A stretch of DNA of 58,014 nt from Gemmatimonadota bacterium (GTDB lineage: Bacteria > Gemmatimonadota > Gemmatimonadetes > Gemmatimonadales > GWC2-71-9): contig JBGQIW010000004.1 of assembly GCA_041498715.1 (NCBI GenBank), positions 1-58,014 on the forward strand, in the 5' to 3' direction. The notes beneath the pieces were generated by a model. It was not told the origin of the DNA. It made no database searches and worked only from the letters and a program-made list of their open reading frames with translations. A program made the translations under genes and the position numbers. Each line of letters begins with the position of its first letter. Within the stretch, counting starts at the first letter, position 1. This document shows, one piece after another, positions 21,466-29,458 of the stretch.

Positions 21466-23016
21466 TCACACCCCCCACAGATAGCTCGCGTTCAGGGCGC
21501 TCGCTTCCAGGCGGTCGGCATGGCGCGACTTGTTGAGCGCGTGGATCAGCGCCCGGGCGCTGGCCTCCACGATGTCGGTGGAGGCGCCCTGCCCGCTCAG
21601 CGACTTTCCGTCCACCCGCGCCTGGAGGAACACCTGCCCCACGCTGTCCTTGCCCGGCGTGACCGACCGGAGCTGCAGGCCGATGACTTCGACCTGGCGG
21701 CGAAGAATCTCGCTGATCGCGGTGAACGCCGCCGCGATGGGTCCGTCGCCGCTGCCCCGGGCGGTCCGCTCGCCGCTCCAGGGCCCCGTCAGCCGGACGG
21801 TCGCGCTGGCCGGGACGTTGCCGCAGACGACCTCGAGATGGGTCAGCTGATACTCCTCGGGCGCGTCGTGGAACGAGTCGTGGAGCAACGCGAGCAGATC
21901 CTCGTCGAGGATCGCGCGCTTGCGGTCGGCGAGCGTGGTGAACCGCTGGTAAATCTCGCCCAGCTTTTCCGGGTCCAACTCGTAGCCGAGCTCGCGGAAG
22001 CGCTGCTCCAGGGCGTGCCGGCCCGAGTGCTTGCCGAGAACCAGGGTGGACTTGGGGATGCCGACCGTCTCCGGCCGCATGATCTCGTAGGTCTCGCCGT
22101 TCCGCAGCATCCCGTGCTGATGGATGCCGGACTCGTGGGCGAACGCGTTCCGGCCGACGACCGCCTTGTTGGGCTGGGGGAAGACCCCGGTGAGGTAGGA
22201 GAGCAGCTGGCTGGTGCGGTAGATCTCCTGGGTCACGATGTTGGTGCGAAAGCCGAGCTGGGGCCGCACGACCGCGGCCATGACCAGCTCCTCCAGCGCG
22301 GCGTTGCCCGCCCGCTCACCAATGCCGTTCACCGTGCATTCCACCTGGCCGGCCCCCGCCTGGATCGCCGCGATCGAGTTGGCGACGGCGAGGCCCAGAT
22401 CGTCGTGGCAGTGGGCGCTGAAGGTCACGCGGTCCCCGCCCGGCACCCGCTCCCGCACCGAGTGGAACATCGCGGCGTACTCCGGCGGCAGCGCGAAGCC
22501 GACGGTGTCAGGCAGGTTGATCGTGGTCGCGCCCTCGGCGATCGCGAGCTCCACCACCCGGCACAGGAAGTCGGGATCGGTGCGGCTGGCGTCCTCGGCG
22601 GAGAACTCGACATCGTCCGTGAACGACCGGGCCCGGCGGACGCCCTGGCGGGCCATCTCCAGCGCCTCCTCGCGGTCGATCCGGAGTTTTTCCCGGAGAT
22701 GCAGGTCGGAGGTGGAGAGGAACACGTGGATCCGCGAGCGTCCGGCTGCGCGCAGCGCCTCGCCCGCGAGATCGATGTCCCGCTCCACGCACCGGGCCAG
22801 CGCGGCGACGACCGGCCGGCGTACCTCGCTCGCGATGTCGCGGACGCTGCGGAAATCCCCGTCGGACGCCGCCGGGAAGCCGGCCTCGATCACGTCCACG
22901 CCGAGCGCGTCGAGCTGGCGGGCGAGCCGGAGCTTCTCCTCGGCGCTCAGGCTGTTGCCGGGGGCCTGCTCTCCGTCCCGGAGGGTCGTGTCGAAGACGA
23001 TCACGTCGCTTGCCAT
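21466..23016 (-). CDS. leuA: 2-isopropylmalate synthase
   Basis: FDTTLRDGEQ, HCHDDLGLA, NGIGERAGNA, HESGIHQ, C-terminal regulatory domain. Confidence 0.96.
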   Translation of the reverse strand: MASDVIVFDTTLRDGEQAPGNSLSAEEKLRLARQLDALGVDVIEAGFPAASDGDFRSVRDIASEVRRPVVAALARCVERDIDLAGEALRAAGRSRIHVFLSTSDLHLREKLRIDREEALEMARQGVRRARSFTDDVEFSAEDASRTDPDFLCRVVELAIAEGATTINLPDTVGFALPPEYAAMFHSVRERVPGGDRVTFSAHCHDDLGLAVANSIAAIQAGAGQVECTVNGIGERAGNAALEELVMAAVVRPQLGFRTNIVTQEIYRTSQLLSYLTGVFPQPNKAVVGRNAFAHESGIHQHGMLRNGETYEIMRPETVGIPKSTLVLGKHSGRHALEQRFRELGYELDPEKLGEIYQRFTTLADRKRAILDEDLLALLHDSFHDAPEEYQLTHLEVVCGNVPASATVRLTGPWSGERTARGSGDGPIAAAFTAISEILRRQVEVIGLQLRSVTPGKDSVGQVFLQARVDGKSLSGQGASTDIVEASARALIHALNKSRHADRLEASALNASYLWGV

Positions 23017-23042
23017 GGGAACTCCGTCCGCCATTGATGCCT

Positions 23043-23081
23043 GAAACGCGAAGCGCCGCGAACCCGGAGGTCCGCGGCGCT
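23043..23081 (-). terminator. leu-ilv attenuator terminator
   Basis: Stem AGCGCCGCGG/UCGCGGCGCU followed by UCGCGUUUC. Confidence 0.7.
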
Positions 23082-23105
23082 GGGTTGATTCGTCTGAGAC
23101 GCTGC

Positions 23106-23198
23106 TTACACTGTCTCGCCCGGCACGCCGCGGATCCCCTGCCCGATAAGCACGAGCAGAAGGCTGAGGCCGACGATAAGGACGAGCTGCTGGGTCAT
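23106..23198 (-). CDS. leu/ilv leader peptide MTQQLVLIVGLSLLLVLIGQGIRGVPGETV (30 aa)
   Basis: 7 Leu, 5 Val and 3 Ile codons; lies between a promoter and a terminator; UCCGCGGCG within it can pair with the terminator 5' arm. Confidence 0.85.
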   Translation of the reverse strand: MTQQLVLIVGLSLLLVLIGQGIRGVPGETV

Positions 23199-23243
23199 TA
23201 CGATGAGTCTCTCGGTGCCGATTGTTTATACCACCGAGTGACA

Positions 23244-23272
23244 AGCCTACGCAAGGCGATTCCGGCCGTCAA
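23244..23272 (-). promoter_or_regulatory. Sigma70 promoter of the leuA-ilvBNC-leuCDB operon
   Basis: TTGACG-N17-TAGGCT. Confidence 0.75.
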
Positions 23273-23287
23273 GGGGCGTCGCCCCCC

Positions 23288-23801
23288 TCAAGGCTTGAGC
23301 GCAATCCGGGCGGTGCGGTCGATCCGGTTGAGCTGCAGGGGGATGCGCTGCTCGGCCAGATACTCGTCCGTCGCCTGTCTGGCGCCCTGCCAGTGGCCGT
23401 AGTCGTCGAGGATCAGGACCCCGGCGCGCGCGAGCCGGGGGTAGAGATGTCGCAGCTCGTGACGGGTGGAGTCGTACCAGTCGGTGTCCAGCCGGAGCAG
23501 GCTGATCTGCTGCGGCGCCCTGTCCGGCAGCGTGTCCTCGACTTCCCCTTCACGAAGTGCACCCGCGCCGCGTCGTAGCCCGTGCTCAGGACCGCCTGCC
23601 GCACGTCCTCCAGCGAGGCGTAGAGCCAGCTCCGGCCGTCGGGCTGGGTTACCCGAGACGACCTGCGAGGCCGCGTCGCGACCCTTGAAGTCGACGTCCT
23701 GAGCGGTCGGGGACGGCATGCCCTCGAAGGTGTCGAAGAGGTACAAGTCGCGGGACTGGTCCCCCAGCCGCCTTGACCAACCGCTTGACGATTTGCCGCA
23801 T
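23288..23801 (-). pseudogene. TylF/MycF/NovP-type O-methyltransferase remnant
   Basis: Fragments LYLFDTFEGMP, YASLEDVRQAV...VHFVKG and VEDTLP...LLRLDTDWYDST...DDYGHWQGAR need frame changes to join. The N-terminal half is missing after MRQIVKRLVKAAG. Confidence 0.8.
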
Positions 23802-23974
23802 CGGCGATGCCCCTCCGCGAGAAGCCGGAAGCTGAGCGAGCGACGAAGCTACCCAGACCACCAAACCGGGGCAAGCACGGCCACCGACACGATAGGCCAT
23901 TACAGAGAAAAGGGTTACGCAGAACCGCCGAGCCGCTCGACACCGCGCCGCGGGTTTCCCCGGACGCAGCCCGC

Positions 23975-24002
23975 TTGACGCATCCACCCGCTTGCATAAG
24001 AT
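23975..24002 (+). promoter_or_regulatory. Sigma70 promoter of the gltB leader
   Basis: TTGACG-N16-TAAGAT; the leader ATG lies 6 nt after the -10 (leaderless). Confidence 0.65.
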
Positions 24003-24008
24003 TGCAGC

Positions 24009-24080
24009 ATGATGATTAGCGCGCTCGCCCCGGCCGCCGTCAACCTTATTCTCGCCAGCCCTCTGGGAGCGACCGGGTAG
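24009..24080 (+). CDS. Putative gltB leader peptide MMISALAPAAVNLILASPLGATG (23 aa)
   Basis: Leaderless uORF; its last codons GGGAGCGACCGGGU are complementary to ACCCGGCCCGCUCCC, which includes the terminator 5' arm. Confidence 0.65.
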   Translation: MMISALAPAAVNLILASPLGATG

Positions 24081-24103
24081 ATAGTGCATAGCTGATGGAC
24101 CCG

Positions 24104-24133
24104 GCCCGCTCCCCTGACGGAGCGGGCTTTTTT
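24104..24133 (+). terminator. Intrinsic terminator (attenuator) upstream of gltB
   Basis: 9-bp stem GCCCGCUCC/GGAGCGGGC plus UUUUUU. Confidence 0.85.
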
Positions 24134-24189
24134 GTTGCCCCGCCGCCGGCCTCTCCGGTCGGCTCGAGGGCCACTCCAACGGAGGCACC

Positions 24190-27100
24190 ATGGCCGATTC
24201 CGGGCAGCGGATCCGTCCGGCCAGTTCCCGTTCCTCGAGTCCTCACGCGGCGACTGCCGGGCCCAACCTCGATCCCTATCGCGAGCACGACGCCTGCGGC
24301 ACCGGCTTCGTCGCCCGGGCCTCGGGCGTACGTTCGCACGAGGTCGTCACGATGGCGCTCGAGGCGGTGGCCCGCGTGGCTCACCGCGGCGCGGCATCCA
24401 CCGACAACTCGGGCGACGGCGCGGGCCTGCTCACCCAGATCCCCCACCGGTTGTTCTTTCGCGACGCCTACCGGCTCGGGCTCCGGCTCCAACCCGGCCG
24501 GCCGTTCGGCGTGGGCGCGTTCTTTCTGCCGGCCGACGCCGACGGGCTCGCCCGTGCCACCGGAATCGTCGAGCAAGTCCTCGCCGCGGACGGCATCCCT
24601 TTCCTCGGCTGGCGTGACGTGCCGGTCAACGCCGCCGCCCTGGGCGCGACGGCGCGCGCCGCCTGCCCGGTGATCCGGCAGGCGTTCGTGGGCCTGCCCG
24701 CGGGCGCGGGCGACGACGAGTGCTGGGAGCGCGCGCTCTACCTGGCGCGGCGCGAGATGGAGCGACGTGCCAAGGAGGCGGGGCTGACGAATTTCTACGT
24801 CAGCTCCCTCTCCTGCCGCACCATCGTCTACAAAGCCCTTCTCGCAGGCACCCAGCTGCCGGTCTTCTACACCGACTTCCGCTATCCCGAGTACGAAGCG
24901 GCCATCGCGGTCTTCCACCAGCGCTACTCCACCAACACCCTGCCCAGCTGGCCCCTAGCACAGCCGTTCCGGCTGCTCGCCCACAATGGCGAGATCAATA
25001 CGCTCTGGGGCAACCGCAACACCATGGCGATGCGACAGCCGATGCTCGATTCACCGCTCTGGGGCAAGCGGGTGGAGCGTATCCGGGACGTGATCTGGCA
25101 GGAAGGCAGCGATTCGGCGAGCCTGGACAACGCGATGGAGCTGTTCGTGCGCTCGGGTCGCGACCCGGTGCACACCCTCATGATGATGATCCCCCAGGCG
25201 TGGGAGAAGTACCCCGACCTGCATCCCTCGATCAAGGCCTTCTACGAATACCATCAGTGCGTGCACGAGCCGTGGGACGGACCGGCGGCCGTGACGTTCA
25301 CCGACGGCATCCTGGCCGGTGCCATCGTGGACCGGAACGGGCTCCGCCCCTGCCGCTACAAAGTGCGGAGCGACGGGCTCGTGACCGCGGGCTCGGAGGT
25401 CGGCCTGGTGGATTTCGACCCGCACGAGGTGGTGGAGAGCGGCAAGGTGGGCCCGGGCGAGGTGCTGGTGGTGGACACCCGTAAGGGCGAGGTCGTCCGC
25501 AATCTCGACGCGAAGCTCGAGGTGGCCGGACGGCGACCCTACGCGCGGTGGGTGGCCCGCTATATGGCCCGGCTGGAGCCGGACCCCTCGCGCCTGCCGC
25601 CCGGCCCGGCGCCCGAGGATCTGGAGCGGACCCAGCGCGCCTTCGGCTACGGCTTCGAGGACCTCCGCTACGCGCTCGAGCCGATGGGCGCCAGCGGCGC
25701 CGACGCCGTGTGGAGCATGGGCGACGACACGCCGATCCCGCCGCTCGCGAAGCAGGCGCCGAATCTGTACGCCTATTTCCGCCAGCGCTTCGCCCAGGTC
25801 ACCAACCCGCCGATCGATTCGCTCCGCGAGTCGATGGTCATGTCGCTCCGAGTCCACCTCGGCCGGCGGGAGTCACCGCTGCTCGAGCGGCCGAGCTACG
25901 CCCGCATGCTCCGGATCGAGCACCCGATCATGCTCCCCGAAGAGATGGCCGCGCTGCACAACGTGGCCGGCTTCTCCGCCGTCACGATCGACGCGCTGTG
26001 GGATCCCGCCGTTGGCGCGGACGGACTCTTCCCGGCGCTCGTGAGCCTCCGGCGGGCCGCCGAGCGCGCGGTCCGCCGCGGAGCCCGCATCCTCGTGATC
26101 AGCGACCGGGCCGCGGGCGAGCGTCGCGCGGCCATCCCGATGCTCCTGGCTGTCGGCGCCGTCCGCCAGCACCTGGTCGAGCGCGGACTGCGGGCCCGTG
26201 TGGGTCTGGTAGCCGAGGTCGGCGACGCGCTCGACATCCATCACTTCGCCGCGCTCTTCGGCTACGGGGCCGAGGCGGTCCATCCGTGGCTCGCCCTCGC
26301 CAGTGTGGATGCGCTGTTCTCCGCGGACGTCCACGAGACCCGTCGGGACGCCGCGGACCAGACCCGGCCCACGCCGGAGGAAGCGCGCCAGCGGTTCCGG
26401 ACTGCCGCCGAAAAGGGCCTGCTCAAGATTCTATCGAAGATGGGGATCTCCACGCTGTCGTCCTACTGCGGGGCGCAGACCTTCGAGGCCCTCGGCCTCG
26501 GCGCGGAAGTCATCGACGCGTGCTTCGCCGGGACGGCGTCGCCCATCGGCGGGATCGGCTTCGAGGAGATCGCGGACGACGTCCTCGCGCACCATCGGGC
26601 TGCGTACGCGCCGGTGGCGGAGCCGGCGAGCGCCCTGCCCGACTACGGCCGGGTGCGCTTCCGGAAGGAGGGCGAGGACCATGGCTGGGCGCCGCCCATC
26701 GTGGTCGCGCTGCAGCAGGCAGTGAAGGCCGGCACCCAGGAGGCGTACGCCGCGTACCTCACGAAGAACGGGTACCGCCGGCCCGCGGGCCCGCGCGACC
26801 TGCTCGCGATCCGGGTCGGGACACCGGTCCCCATCGACGAGGTCGAGCCGGCCGAGGCCGTCCGCCGGCGGTTCATCTCCTCGGCCATGTCGCTCGGCGC
26901 GCTGTCGCCGGAGGCGCACGCCGTGCTCTCGATCGGCATGAACCGCATCGGTGCGAAATCCAACTCGGGCGAAGGCGGCGAGGATCCCGCCAATTACCGC
27001 ACGCTCGCGAACGGCGATCGCCTGGACAACCGGATCAAGCAGGTCGCGTCCGCCCGCTTCGGGGTCACGGCCGAGTATCTGGTCCGGGCGGAGGAGCTCG

Positions 27101-28803
27101 AGATCAAGATCGTGCAGGGGGCCAAGCCGGGCGAAGGCGGCCAGTTGCCGGCGCACAAGGTGACGGAGCTCATCGCGCGGCTGCGCCACGCCGTCCCCGG
27201 CATTCAGCTGATCTCGCCGCCTCCGCACCATGACATCTACTCGATCGAGGATCTCGCGCAGCTGATCCACGATCTCAAGACGGTGAACCCGGTGGCGCGG
27301 GTGGGCGTCAAGCTGGTGGCCGAGGCCGGCGTCGGCACCGTGGCCGCCGGCGTGGCAAAGGCCTACGCCGACTACGTCCTCATCGCCGGGCACAACGGGG
27401 GCACGGGCGCCTCGCCGCTGTCGTCCATCAAGCACGCGGGGTCTCCTTGGGAGCTCGGGCTGGCTGAGGCCCAGGCGACGCTGGTCCGGAACGGCCTCCG
27501 GCACCGGATCGAGGTCCGCACGGACGGCGGTCTCAAGACCGGCCGGGACGTGGTCATCGCCGCGCTGCTCGGGGCCGAGTCGTACGGGTTCGGCACGGCG
27601 GCCCTGGTCGCTATCGGCTGCGCCATGGCCCGGCAGTGTCATCTGAACACCTGCCCCACCGGCATCGCCACCCAACGGCCCGATCTCCGGACCAAGTTCA
27701 AGGGGACGGCGGAGCAGGTCATCACCTACTTCACGCTGCTCGCCGAGGAGGTGCGGGAGATCGTGGCCTCGATGGGATTCCGCTCGCTAGACGAGATCAT
27801 CGGGCGCAACGATCTACTCGAACGGGTCGAGCGGCCGGACGTGCCCCGCGCGCAGATGCTGGACCTCTCACTGTTGCTGGCCGACGGCGCGCGCGCGGGA
27901 TCGGCGACGCCCCGGCGGCGGCTCCAGGATCGCAACGACCGCCCGGGCATGACCTGCCTCGACGACGAGATTCTGCAGGAGCTCGAGCCCTATCTGGAGA
28001 GCGGCCTGCCGTTCGCGGGCAACTACGAGATCCGCAACCACCATCTCGCGGTCGGCGCCCGGGTAGCCGGCGTGATCGCGACGCGGGTCGGCGACGCCGG
28101 CCTGCCGGAGGGCAGGATCCGGCTGCGCTTCCGTGGGCCGGCGGGGCAGAGCTTCGGAGCGTTCTTGACGCCCGGCATGCACCTCGACCTCGAAGGCGAG
28201 GCGAACGACTACGTCGGGAAGGGCCTGAGCGGCGGCGAAATCACCATCCGTCCATATCGCCGGGTGGCGTACGCCGACGCGACGCACCAGCACCTCATCC
28301 TCGGCAACACGGTGCTGTACGGGGCGACCGCCGGCAAGCTCTTCGCGGCCGGTCAGGCGGGCGACCGCTTCGCCGTGCGTAACTCCGGAGCCATCGCGGT
28401 GATCGAGGGCGCCGGCAATCACTGCTGCGAATACATGACCGGGGGAATCGTCGTCGTGCTGGGGCGCGCCGGCCGGAATCTGGGCGCGGGTATGTCGAAC
28501 GGCGTGGCCTACGTGCTGGACGAAACCCGGACGCTGGACGAGCGGGTCAACGGCGACATGGTCGACCTGGTCGAGCTCGACAGCGAAGACGACGAGGTGC
28601 TCCGCCGCCTCGTGCGCGAGCACGAGGAGAAGACCACGAGCCCCCGGGCCCGCACGCTGCTCGTGGACTGGGCCCGCTTCCAGCCGCTCTTCCGCAAGGT
28701 GGCGCCGAAGGGCGCCGAGGCATTCGTGGCGGCGGCGCGCAGCGCTTACCTGCAGGGTTCATCCAGCGAGCCCGAGCCCGTGCTCGCCCGGCGGAGTGCG
28801 TAG
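24190..28803 (+). CDS. gltB: Glutamate synthase large subunit
   Basis: HDACGTG (Ntn Cys), EPWDGPA, FAQVTNPPID, SNSGEGGED, QGAKPGEGGQLP, 3Fe-4S motif CAMARQCHLNTC, GXGXG domain. Confidence 0.97.
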   Translation: MADSGQRIRPASSRSSSPHAATAGPNLDPYREHDACGTGFVARASGVRSHEVVTMALEAVARVAHRGAASTDNSGDGAGLLTQIPHRLFFRDAYRLGLRLQPGRPFGVGAFFLPADADGLARATGIVEQVLAADGIPFLGWRDVPVNAAALGATARAACPVIRQAFVGLPAGAGDDECWERALYLARREMERRAKEAGLTNFYVSSLSCRTIVYKALLAGTQLPVFYTDFRYPEYEAAIAVFHQRYSTNTLPSWPLAQPFRLLAHNGEINTLWGNRNTMAMRQPMLDSPLWGKRVERIRDVIWQEGSDSASLDNAMELFVRSGRDPVHTLMMMIPQAWEKYPDLHPSIKAFYEYHQCVHEPWDGPAAVTFTDGILAGAIVDRNGLRPCRYKVRSDGLVTAGSEVGLVDFDPHEVVESGKVGPGEVLVVDTRKGEVVRNLDAKLEVAGRRPYARWVARYMARLEPDPSRLPPGPAPEDLERTQRAFGYGFEDLRYALEPMGASGADAVWSMGDDTPIPPLAKQAPNLYAYFRQRFAQVTNPPIDSLRESMVMSLRVHLGRRESPLLERPSYARMLRIEHPIMLPEEMAALHNVAGFSAVTIDALWDPAVGADGLFPALVSLRRAAERAVRRGARILVISDRAAGERRAAIPMLLAVGAVRQHLVERGLRARVGLVAEVGDALDIHHFAALFGYGAEAVHPWLALASVDALFSADVHETRRDAADQTRPTPEEARQRFRTAAEKGLLKILSKMGISTLSSYCGAQTFEALGLGAEVIDACFAGTASPIGGIGFEEIADDVLAHHRAAYAPVAEPASALPDYGRVRFRKEGEDHGWAPPIVVALQQAVKAGTQEAYAAYLTKNGYRRPAGPRDLLAIRVGTPVPIDEVEPAEAVRRRFISSAMSLGALSPEAHAVLSIGMNRIGAKSNSGEGGEDPANYRTLANGDRLDNRIKQVASARFGVTAEYLVRAEELEIKIVQGAKPGEGGQLPAHKVTELIARLRHAVPGIQLISPPPHHDIYSIEDLAQLIHDLKTVNPVARVGVKLVAEAGVGTVAAGVAKAYADYVLIAGHNGGTGASPLSSIKHAGSPWELGLAEAQATLVRNGLRHRIEVRTDGGLKTGRDVVIAALLGAESYGFGTAALVAIGCAMARQCHLNTCPTGIATQRPDLRTKFKGTAEQVITYFTLLAEEVREIVASMGFRSLDEIIGRNDLLERVERPDVPRAQMLDLSLLLADGARAGSATPRRRLQDRNDRPGMTCLDDEILQELEPYLESGLPFAGNYEIRNHHLAVGARVAGVIATRVGDAGLPEGRIRLRFRGPAGQSFGAFLTPGMHLDLEGEANDYVGKGLSGGEITIRPYRRVAYADATHQHLILGNTVLYGATAGKLFAAGQAGDRFAVRNSGAIAVIEGAGNHCCEYMTGGIVVVLGRAGRNLGAGMSNGVAYVLDETRTLDERVNGDMVDLVELDSEDDEVLRRLVREHEEKTTSPRARTLLVDWARFQPLFRKVAPKGAEAFVAAARSAYLQGSSSEPEPVLARRSA

Positions 28804-28822: not shown

Positions 28823-29458
28823 ATGGCTTGGCGCCCCCGTGTCTGCCTGCTGCTCGGAGTCCTGTTGGGCGCGGTTCCCCCGGGAGCCAGCGCCCAGCAA
28901 CCGCGTACGCTCCTCGGCTTCGAGCTTGGATACTCGCGCGCGCAATTCGAGCCGCCCGGCACGCCGAGCCAGTCCCGCGACGGCAGCCTGATCGCCGGCT
29001 TCGTCTCCCAGCACATTGCCGGTCCGCTGAGCGCACAGCTCGAGCTGATGTTCTCCCGCAAGGGCGGCGGCCTCTCGGCGGTGAGCTCGGCCGGAACCAC
29101 CCTCGGTACCGCTCAAATCATCTACGTCGAGATCCCGATGCTGGCCCGGGTGGCGCTGCCGATCGGACGGCTCCGCCCGGTGCTGCTCGGCGGCGGCTCC
29201 TTCGCGGTCTCGGTGGGGTGCGAGTTGCAGGTTCAAGGCCTCGACAACATCGAGCAGCAGCGGTGCGACGGGGCGAATGCCAACCCCTCACTGGCGGGAA
29301 CCGACTTCAACGCGATCGTGGGGGGAGGTCTCGAATACCCGTGGCGCGGCTCCTACCTCAGGCTCGAGGTCCGGCGCGTCGTCGGCTTGCACGATCTCTC
29401 CGCCGGCCAGCAGCTCAAGAACCGGGTCTGGGCCGTGGTGGCGGGCATCACCTTCTGA
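28823..29458 (+). CDS. Outer-membrane beta-barrel (PorT-like porin family) protein
   Basis: Signal peptide, FSRKGG, YVEIPML, terminal Phe (GITF). Confidence 0.7.
   Translation: MAWRPRVCLLLGVLLGAVPPGASAQQPRTLLGFELGYSRAQFEPPGTPSQSRDGSLIAGFVSQHIAGPLSAQLELMFSRKGGGLSAVSSAGTTLGTAQIIYVEIPMLARVALPIGRLRPVLLGGGSFAVSVGCELQVQGLDNIEQQRCDGANANPSLAGTDFNAIVGGGLEYPWRGSYLRLEVRRVVGLHDLSAGQQLKNRVWAVVAGITF

Follow-up and report, generated by a model that had tools for sequence, protein, structure and literature searches.

The locus considered here raises the question of how a bacterium sets the expression of glutamate synthase (GOGAT), its main producer of glutamate, which in turn is the amino donor for most biosynthesis. 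Known controls of GOGAT are DNA-binding regulators (such as Lrp, ArgR, Crp, GltC, TnrA and GlnR) and a few riboswitch candidates. We analysed a stretch of 58,014 nucleotides (nt), hereafter the window, from a member of the order Gemmatimonadales in the Gemmatimonadota, a soil phylum that is widespread yet hardly studied (GenBank assembly GCA_041498715.1, contig JBGQIW010000004.1, positions 1 to 58,014 of the forward strand). The source genome, G000, is a 2.75-Mb metagenome-assembled genome that is 80% complete, and the window is its contig C4. The large-subunit gene gltB is preceded in the window by a short leader that we read as a conserved, ribosome-dependent (leader-peptide) transcription attenuator, with a probability of roughly 0.7. 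Within this leader an antiterminator and a terminator exclude each other because they share a segment, and the end of a short open reading frame (ORF) overlaps the 5′ arm of the antiterminator. The parts of the leader, from the promoter to the gene, are as follows.

23975 to 23980, forward strand: -35 box TTGACG, from a promoter scan
23997 to 24002, forward strand: -10 box TAAGAT, from the promoter scan, with a 16-nt spacer from the -35 box
24012 to 24080, forward strand: leader ORF of 22 codons from the conserved ATG (23 from the ATG at 24009), stop codon TAG at 24078-24080
24029 to 24037, forward strand: segment 1 (CCCGGCCGC), putative anti-antiterminator arm, partner 24069-24077
24042 to 24053, forward strand: proposed control codons AAC CTT ATT CTC (Asn-Leu-Ile-Leu), 17-23 nt before segment 2
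24065 to 24078, forward strand: segment 2 (GGGAGCGACCGGGU), 5′ arm of the antiterminator, pairing with 24099-24113
24099 to 24113, forward strand: segment 3, 3′ arm of the antiterminator and 5′ arm of the terminator
24103 to 24133, forward strand: intrinsic terminator with a 10-bp stem and 6-nt loop (stem 24103-24128) and a T6 tract (24128-24133)
24181 to 24185, forward strand: Shine-Dalgarno sequence GGAGG of gltB, 5 nt ahead of its ATG
24190 to 28803, forward strand: gltB, glutamate synthase large subunit (NCBIfam PRK11750, 1662 bits)

A preliminary description of this locus, made from the letters of the window, had named the promoter, the ATG, the ORF, the antiterminator and the U6 terminator, and all of these were found where it had placed them, including an ATG 6 nt past the -10 box, at 24009. 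The combination of TTGACG, 16 nt and TAAGAT is the sole sigma-70-like site within 23000-25000, compared with a mean of 0.2 in shuffled sequence. In an alignment of 13 leaders, from 12 genomes of the same genus and one of another genus (G022), CTTGAC is kept in 12 and the sequence further 5′ varies; the -10 box of relatives reads TAAGAT, TAACAT or AATAAT. The start that is kept among the aligned relatives is a second in-frame ATG at 24012. The product of the ORF in the window is (M)MISALAPAAVNLILASPLGATG.

A minimum free energy fold of the whole leader was rejected as a readout (z-score -1.54, uninformative), and the parts were therefore folded separately. The antiterminator, described beforehand as near-perfect, pairs 24065-24078 with 24099-24113 at -27.4 kcal/mol (z -2.97, matched by 1 of 200 shuffles), and the terminator, described as strong, reaches -21.5 kcal/mol (z -4.29, matched by none of 200 shuffles), so that in the window the antiterminator is the more stable of the two. 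Pairing was then counted over 45 leaders (alignment A4, from which the unpublished genomes G004, G007 and G100 were left out). Across this set 91.3% of antiterminator cells are paired, as opposed to 39-57% in controls with the partner shifted by 1-3 columns, and 5 of the 12 pairs show changes on both sides. For the terminator the figure is 97.3%, in leaders that had been retrieved with models containing the terminator. Compensation is most readily seen in the diverged leader L159, where segments 2, 3 and 4 read GGGGGCG, CGCCCCC and GGGGGCG. Of the cells in the 1:2 pairing, 75-80% are paired, with two-sided changes in 6 of the 7 pairs, although the alignment is weak at its 5′ end. Segment 1 is CCCGGTCGC in most relatives, the exact complement of GCGACCGGG, and inspection of the alignment by eye shows that relatives also have an alternative local pairing, CGCUCC with GGGAGCG, on offer.

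A further line of evidence is that the frame appears to be translated. All 45 leaders have an ATG or GTG 36-90 nt ahead of segment 2 from which a frame stays open across the segment and stops within -3 to +9 nt of its end; dinucleotide shuffles of the flanks yield such an ORF at 0.13 per sequence. The stop codon falls 0-6 nt past segment 2 in 44 of the 45 rows, and the row for L160 is one in which a shorter frame was printed. The stop itself varies (TAG, TAA or TGA), and where the aligned leaders differ by indels, these are 3 and 6 nt long and preserve the frame. In a subgroup of the window's genus the ORF is longer by two codons. Segment 2 is invariant in its nucleotides despite differing reading frames: it is read as GATG-stop in class A leaders (54 unique sequences) and as GSDRAA-stop in class B leaders (14 unique), and among lineages the ORF crosses the antiterminator arm in three different frames. 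The two classes also begin differently. In class A the start codon lies 5-10 nt past the -10 box, which indicates a leaderless or nearly leaderless ORF. Class B has a separate -10 box, TATATT, and a 5′ untranslated region of some 40 nt, with AGGTGGG or AGGTAGG ahead of a GTG or ATG. The use of three frames, together with Shine-Dalgarno starts in some lineages, argues that translation is conserved and the peptide is not. Such variation would be intolerable for an aptamer and is explained by a need for the ribosome to reach the end of segment 2.

These observations bear directly on a different explanation, in which a ligand, an RNA-binding protein or a small RNA (sRNA) sets the switch and the open frame is incidental. 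Segments 2 to 4 and the CUUAUU/CUUAAU patch are indeed conserved as nucleotides, and PMC8632094 places riboswitch candidates ahead of glutamate synthase genes. We nevertheless consider this explanation improbable, given that an ORF is kept in all 45 leaders in three frames and that the part 5′ of segment 2 varies in sequence, in length and in the type of its 5′ end, so that a conserved aptamer would have no place there. A repeated protein-binding motif was not seen either, and an Rfam scan of 23300-24700 with E values allowed up to 10 returned no family better than E 0.29, which is chance level; the best scores were far below the gathering thresholds (anti-hemB, 17.9 bits where 49.5 are needed; Trp_leader, 15.2 bits where 41 are needed).

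Together, the folds and the frame suggest how attenuation might work. Transcription is predicted to start at the leader ATG or 1-3 nt before it, and the ORF would be translated in leaderless or near-leaderless fashion. The footprint of a ribosome reaches about 12-13 nt in the 3′ direction, counted from the A-site codon's first base, and 12-15 nt 5′ of the P site. A ribosome that reaches the stop codon at 24078 would cover segment 2 (24065-24077), leaving segments 3 and 4 to pair, and RNA polymerase would stop at the T6 tract (24133), which leaves 56 nt to the start of gltB. If the ribosome instead stalls on AAC-CTT-ATT (24042-24050), its footprint would lie over segment 1 and fall short of segment 2; segment 2 could then pair with segment 3, and the polymerase would enter gltB. 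With no ribosome on the leader, segment 1, or in relatives the local CGCUCC stretch, would hold segment 2, making termination the default.

The leader is not confined to the window. It was recovered 20 times in 41 genomes searched, the window's own included, and in three genera of its family; in a BLAST search of the 40 relatives, every one of the 17 genomes of the genus proved to have it, as did two further genera. The -35 box, the -10 region, the second ATG, CCCGGTCGC of segment 1, CTTATT, GGGAGCGACCGGGT of segment 2, CCCGGCCCGCTCC of segment 3 and GGAGCGGGC of segment 4 with its T run are near-invariant, and the flanks vary. A pattern that fixes segments 2 to 4, and so preselects for them, gave at least 119 loci in 185,579 species genomes; among the matches listed, gltB lies directly 3′ in 64, and the remaining 55 are unrelated, in Streptomyces and others. 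A covariance model trained on the 68 unique leaders and run on 151 genomes sampled from the order matched 42, among them 33 of the 61 that belong to the window's family, along with weak candidate matches in two other families (7 of 62 and 1 of 27), with E values of 1e-4 to 1e-6 for the weak matches in families f2 and f3. The unpublished genome G100 (leader L155) is counted in this tally. G004 and G007 form two rows of alignment A1 and are counted in the BLAST and ArgR tallies, and leaders identical to theirs exist in public records (L042 and L054); none of the conclusions depends solely on these three genomes. A further alignment, A3, made by cmsearch, was set aside because reverse-strand and ilv-leader matches were mixed into it.

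In the 30 best loci of the covariance model gltB is directly downstream in every case, which bears on the idea that the leader is a separate gene for an sRNA or small protein and that gltB is transcribed from its own promoter 3′ of the terminator. A sigma-54-like GG-N8-TTGC core does overlap the terminator tail in the window, and a terminated leader RNA could act in trans, as is reported for rnTrpL. The candidate sigma-54 promoter (GGC-N7-TTGC, 24125-24138) was rejected, however, since even the looser core occurs in only 15 of the 45 leaders, and the match is probably fortuitous. The 56 nt between the T tract and the gltB ATG hold no sigma-70-like site, and contigs from RNA libraries weakly suggest continuity, as they bridge the terminator into gltB. 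A separate gene is accordingly a very improbable account of this leader.

The preliminary description had counted 6 Ala, 4 Leu, 2 Ile, 1 Val and no Glu or Gln in the peptide and had pointed to rare codons, and both observations are borne out: CTT lies at 24045 and ATT at 24015 and 24048, and over 625,855 codons from 1,464 long ORFs of G000 only 4.6% of Leu residues are encoded by CTT and 8.7% of Ile residues by ATT. Its argument that the peptide is rich in Ala, Leu, Ile and Val does not carry over to the family, however, where composition is near that of the proteome. The 68 unique leaders have 12.8% Leu, 5.4% Ile and 9.6% Val versus 10.7, 3.7 and 8.3% in the genome, and Ala, at about 17% versus 13%, gives no sign of being sensed. 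The most enriched residue is one that the description had not considered, Asn, at 6.1% versus 1.8%; it occurs in 55 of 68 leaders, and in some, such as L163 and L145, 3-5 codons are for Asn. Glu codons occur in 2 of the 68 leaders and Gln codons in 9, with none of either in the window. The CTT and ATT codons to which the description had pointed are conserved and lie where a stalled ribosome would leave the antiterminator arm free; the peptide is poorly conserved.

The enrichment at the level of codons is pronounced. With the usage of G000 as a proxy for all genomes, class A leaders contain 67 CTT, 43 ATT and 32 AAT codons where 4.4, 2.9 and 2.5 are expected, a 12- to 15-fold excess. With codon 0 defined as the one in which segment 2 begins, 28 of the 54 class A leaders have CTT at codon -6, and at codon -5 AAT occurs 27 times and ATT 12 times. 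At least one such codon is present in 44 of the 45 leaders, the 3′-most of them mostly 17-27 nt before segment 2, and CTTATT itself is kept in 12 of the 13 aligned leaders. The patch is CTT-ATT in the window's genus, mostly within Asn(AAC)-Leu(CTT)-Ile(ATT)-Leu, and CTT-AAT (Leu-Asn) in most relatives. Synonymous variants (CTT/CTC and AAT/AAC) retain Leu and Asn at the patch, which favours a constraint on codons over one purely on the RNA.

We infer from these codons that the ribosome would stall on low-charged tRNA-Leu and tRNA-Ile in the window's genus, and on tRNA-Leu and tRNA-Asn in most relatives. Leu and Ile receive their nitrogen from glutamate by transamination, and Asn receives its own through Asp and the amide of glutamine, so that stalling may report a shortage of glutamate-derived amino nitrogen. 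It is a reasonable, if putative, reading that GOGAT is keyed to the downstream products of glutamate rather than to glutamate. The fuller proposal, that GOGAT is set by the decoding speed of rare Leu, Ile and Asn codons as a readout of amino nitrogen, together with an ArgR operator, and not directly by glutamate or glutamine, is tentative, and we would put it at clearly less than even odds. Both the amino acids sensed and the start site are putative. One specific version, in which Asn-tRNA made solely by transamidation is a direct sensor of glutamine, was excluded because asnS, asnB and gatB were all present in the five genomes searched; Asn would be supplied via Asp and the glutamine amide by AsnB, and not by transamidation alone. 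A search of 420 nt upstream of asnS and asnB in G000 revealed no Asn-codon leaders there. ARAGORN reported 27 tRNAs in G000, with no tRNA-Leu(GAG), tRNA-Ile or tRNA-Asn among them, which is uninformative on the tRNAs that read these codons.

The same codon data invite an explanation in which the ORF does drive the switch and the signal is something other than tRNA charging: either a fixed slow site that sets basal read-through or reports translation capacity, or an arrest peptide of the TnaC or SpeFL type that responds to a metabolite, for instance glutamine or arginine. There are few control codons and they vary with lineage, and the three enriched codons all end in T and are read by wobble, so that "slow" describes them as well as "starvation-sensitive". 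In class B further T-ending codons, ACT and TGT, are enriched too. This alternative is unlikely in our view, because the peptide is poorly conserved and its C-terminus depends on the frame (GATG versus GSDRAA), unlike known arrest peptides, and because the CTT/CTC and AAT/AAC variants keep the amino acid. In addition, the same CTT codon serves in the leader next door, a bona fide leader for branched-chain amino acids.

Several observations weigh against leader-peptide attenuation, or against the form of it that we favour. There is no run of control codons, only two or three adjacent ones, and the patch differs by lineage: Leu-Ile, Leu-Asn, Asn-Asn or Val-Val-Leu. The last of these, found in part of the window's genus, uses common codons, and L017 has no rare codon at all; these leaders weaken any reading based on a single amino acid. 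The T-rich patch could also be a signal at the level of the RNA rather than of codons. In the window the 1:2 fold (-18.1 kcal/mol, z 0.03) is at the level of shuffles, and segment 1 has a C-A mismatch. The frame of L122 is broken by a 1-nt deletion after the leader ATG, so that its ORF ends 19 nt later; this leader is either misassembled or a true exception. The RNA libraries, present as assembled contigs that give no 5′ or 3′ ends, are likewise unfavourable: contigs X2 (269 nt, 3 differences, spanning 23969-24237) and X4 (24098-24248) both bridge the terminator, at a depth of about 2-3, strandless and with DNA carry-over possible, and X2 begins 40 nt upstream of the predicted start, which at this depth neither confirms nor refutes that start. 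Lastly, the leaders are kin, so that counts of them overstate their independence, and the loci of the pattern scan were, as noted, preselected.

A second layer of control is suggested by an element over the promoter.

23993 to 24006, no strand assigned: ARG-box-like palindrome TGCATAAGATTGCA, overlapping the -10 box

In relatives TGCATAATAATGCA or TGAATAATAATTCG takes its place, and in class B the palindrome lies just 3′ of the separate TATATT box. It resembles the Escherichia coli ARG-box consensus, TGAAT-N4-ATTCA. The only other strict match in G000 is a perfect TGCATAATAATGCA at C84:3844 (L186:1345), 5 nt ahead of the leaderless ATG of argG, which heads argG-argC-argD-argF′-argB. An AT-rich palindrome over the promoter is therefore shared with arginine biosynthesis genes, as expected of an ARG box. 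The C-terminal domain of ArgR (PF02863) was found in 37 of 41 genomes searched, a set that includes G000; in G000 itself, which is 80% complete, it was not found. The copy at the head of the argG operon and the presence of ArgR in 37 of 41 genomes indicate that the palindrome is probably the ArgR operator of this lineage, and repression by ArgR over the -10 box would probably be added to attenuation. According to PMC1784095, gltBDF of E. coli is repressed by ArgR and activated by Lrp. The gltB leader is similar in having an ARG-box-like operator at the promoter and Leu codons at the control site, given that Lrp is linked to leucine; however, both E. coli controls act through promoter-bound proteins, whereas here the ribosome would read Leu, Ile and Asn.

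The closest models for the gltB leader are the classical attenuators of amino-acid operons, trpL, leuL, ilvL, thrL and hisL of E. coli and Salmonella, which are modelled in PMC1183508. Like these, the gltB leader has a short ORF read as translated, alternative 2:3 and 3:4 pairings with a putative 1:2 pairing, an intrinsic terminator immediately ahead of the structural gene, a stop codon whose position would let a terminating ribosome mask segment 2, and rare candidate control codons. Carter et al. reportedly described, in 1986, rare CUA codons in the leu leader. Unlike the trpL-type leaders, the gltB leader precedes a glutamate synthase gene, has few or no Glu and Gln codons and no run of a single codon, offers candidate codons for amino acids made downstream of glutamate, is leaderless in most lineages and has no match to an Rfam leader. 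A run of codons cognate to the end product of the pathway is a hallmark of this class and is absent here; the leader would work as the family does and vary in what is read. The proposed mechanism is classical, and what is new is the glutamate synthase target and a control site of non-cognate rare codons.

Leaderless attenuators, or attenuators with an upstream ORF (uORF), are also known from high-GC genomes. They are reported for the ilvB, leuA and trp leaders of Actinobacteria (PMC1262725) and for ilvBNC of Corynebacterium (PMC10272879 and PMC11857589). The gltB leader shares with them a uORF and a terminator/antiterminator in a GC-rich genome, and the ilv-leu leader of the window is of the same, ordinary kind; their codons are cognate to the end products of the operon, whereas those of the gltB leader are not, and the phylum (Gemmatimonadota) differs. 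RNA leaders ahead of glutamate synthase genes are described as well. PMC8632094 gives the gltD motif riboswitch candidate, and a glutamine riboswitch that sometimes precedes such genes, which are likewise cis-acting; there they are structured RNAs with no required ORF, from Negativicutes or cyanobacterial/marine lineages, and neither was detected here. In a full-text literature search, no report turned up of a glutamate synthase gene under leader-peptide attenuation, and PMC13236596 and PMC2965389 contained nothing relevant on gltB or glutamate synthase.

If our reading is correct, a leader-peptide attenuator on gltB would be a third kind of GOGAT control. Since the codons read would be non-cognate, with those of the end product swapped for those of dependent amino acids, it would show a way of adapting attenuation to a pathway step that is central and not terminal. 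It would also strengthen the case that regulation by leaderless leader peptides is common in Gemmatimonadota. The design is simple to probe, as only two or three codons would need synonymous recoding.

Divergent from gltB in the window lies an operon for branched-chain amino acids, of which leuA, ilvB, ilvC and leuC were identified on the minus strand. Its leader and the intervening sequence contain two further features.

23106 to 23198, reverse strand: ilv-leu leader peptide MTQQLVLIVGLSLLLVLIGQGIRGVPGETV, followed by a terminator-like hairpin and T-rich tail (23044-23080) and the leuA ATG (23016)
23288 to 23746, reverse strand: remnant of a TylF-type O-methyltransferase gene (Pfam PF05711, profile positions 123-259 of 264)

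The preliminary description placed gltB back-to-back with the ilv-leu operon. This applies to relatives, which lack the methyltransferase remnant and in which nothing separates the two divergent leaders; those of the window are about 780 nt apart, with the remnant in between. The ilv-leu leader of the window is rich in Leu, Val and Ile, and 3 of its 7 Leu codons are CTT. Over 26 unique ilv-leu leaders CTT accounts for 76 of 211 Leu codons, compared with 4.6% genome-wide, Leu, Ile and Val together make up 51% of residues, and Asn occupies 2 of 791 codons. A leader of this type was seen in 27 of 50 loci of about 3 kb examined.

Between the terminator and the gltB Shine-Dalgarno sequence lies one more conserved element.

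24145 to 24163, forward strand: hairpin GCCGGCCUCUCCGGUCGGC

Its CCTCTCCGG is kept in the 13-leader alignment and recurs across many further leaders, and its loop is of the CCUCUCC type (CCGGCCTCTCCGG). The hairpin could mask the GGAGG or be an additional control element; its fold is not better than those of shuffles (z -0.77). On the other side of gltB, the next gene (28823-29458, forward strand) encodes an outer-membrane beta-barrel protein (PF13568), not gltD. In genus g20 (L166-L169, L172 and L173) the gltB frame (LDPWRERD...) opens a few nt from the T tract of the terminator, apparently at a TTG with no clear Shine-Dalgarno sequence, and the leader ORF there can begin at an ATG within the ARG-box-like element.

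Secondary matches of the covariance model are other uORF-terminator leaders rather than gltB leaders. L174, L176, L181 and L182, L175 and L185, and L178-L180 are uORF leaders with a near-identical terminator, GGCCCGCTC..GAGCGGGC. The genes behind them encode a GAF-sigma54-activator, a Gcw_chp-like outer-membrane protein (an assignment below the Pfam cut-off, at 21.7 bits versus 24) and an HAD hydrolase. The uORF of L181 contains four AAT (Asn) codons.

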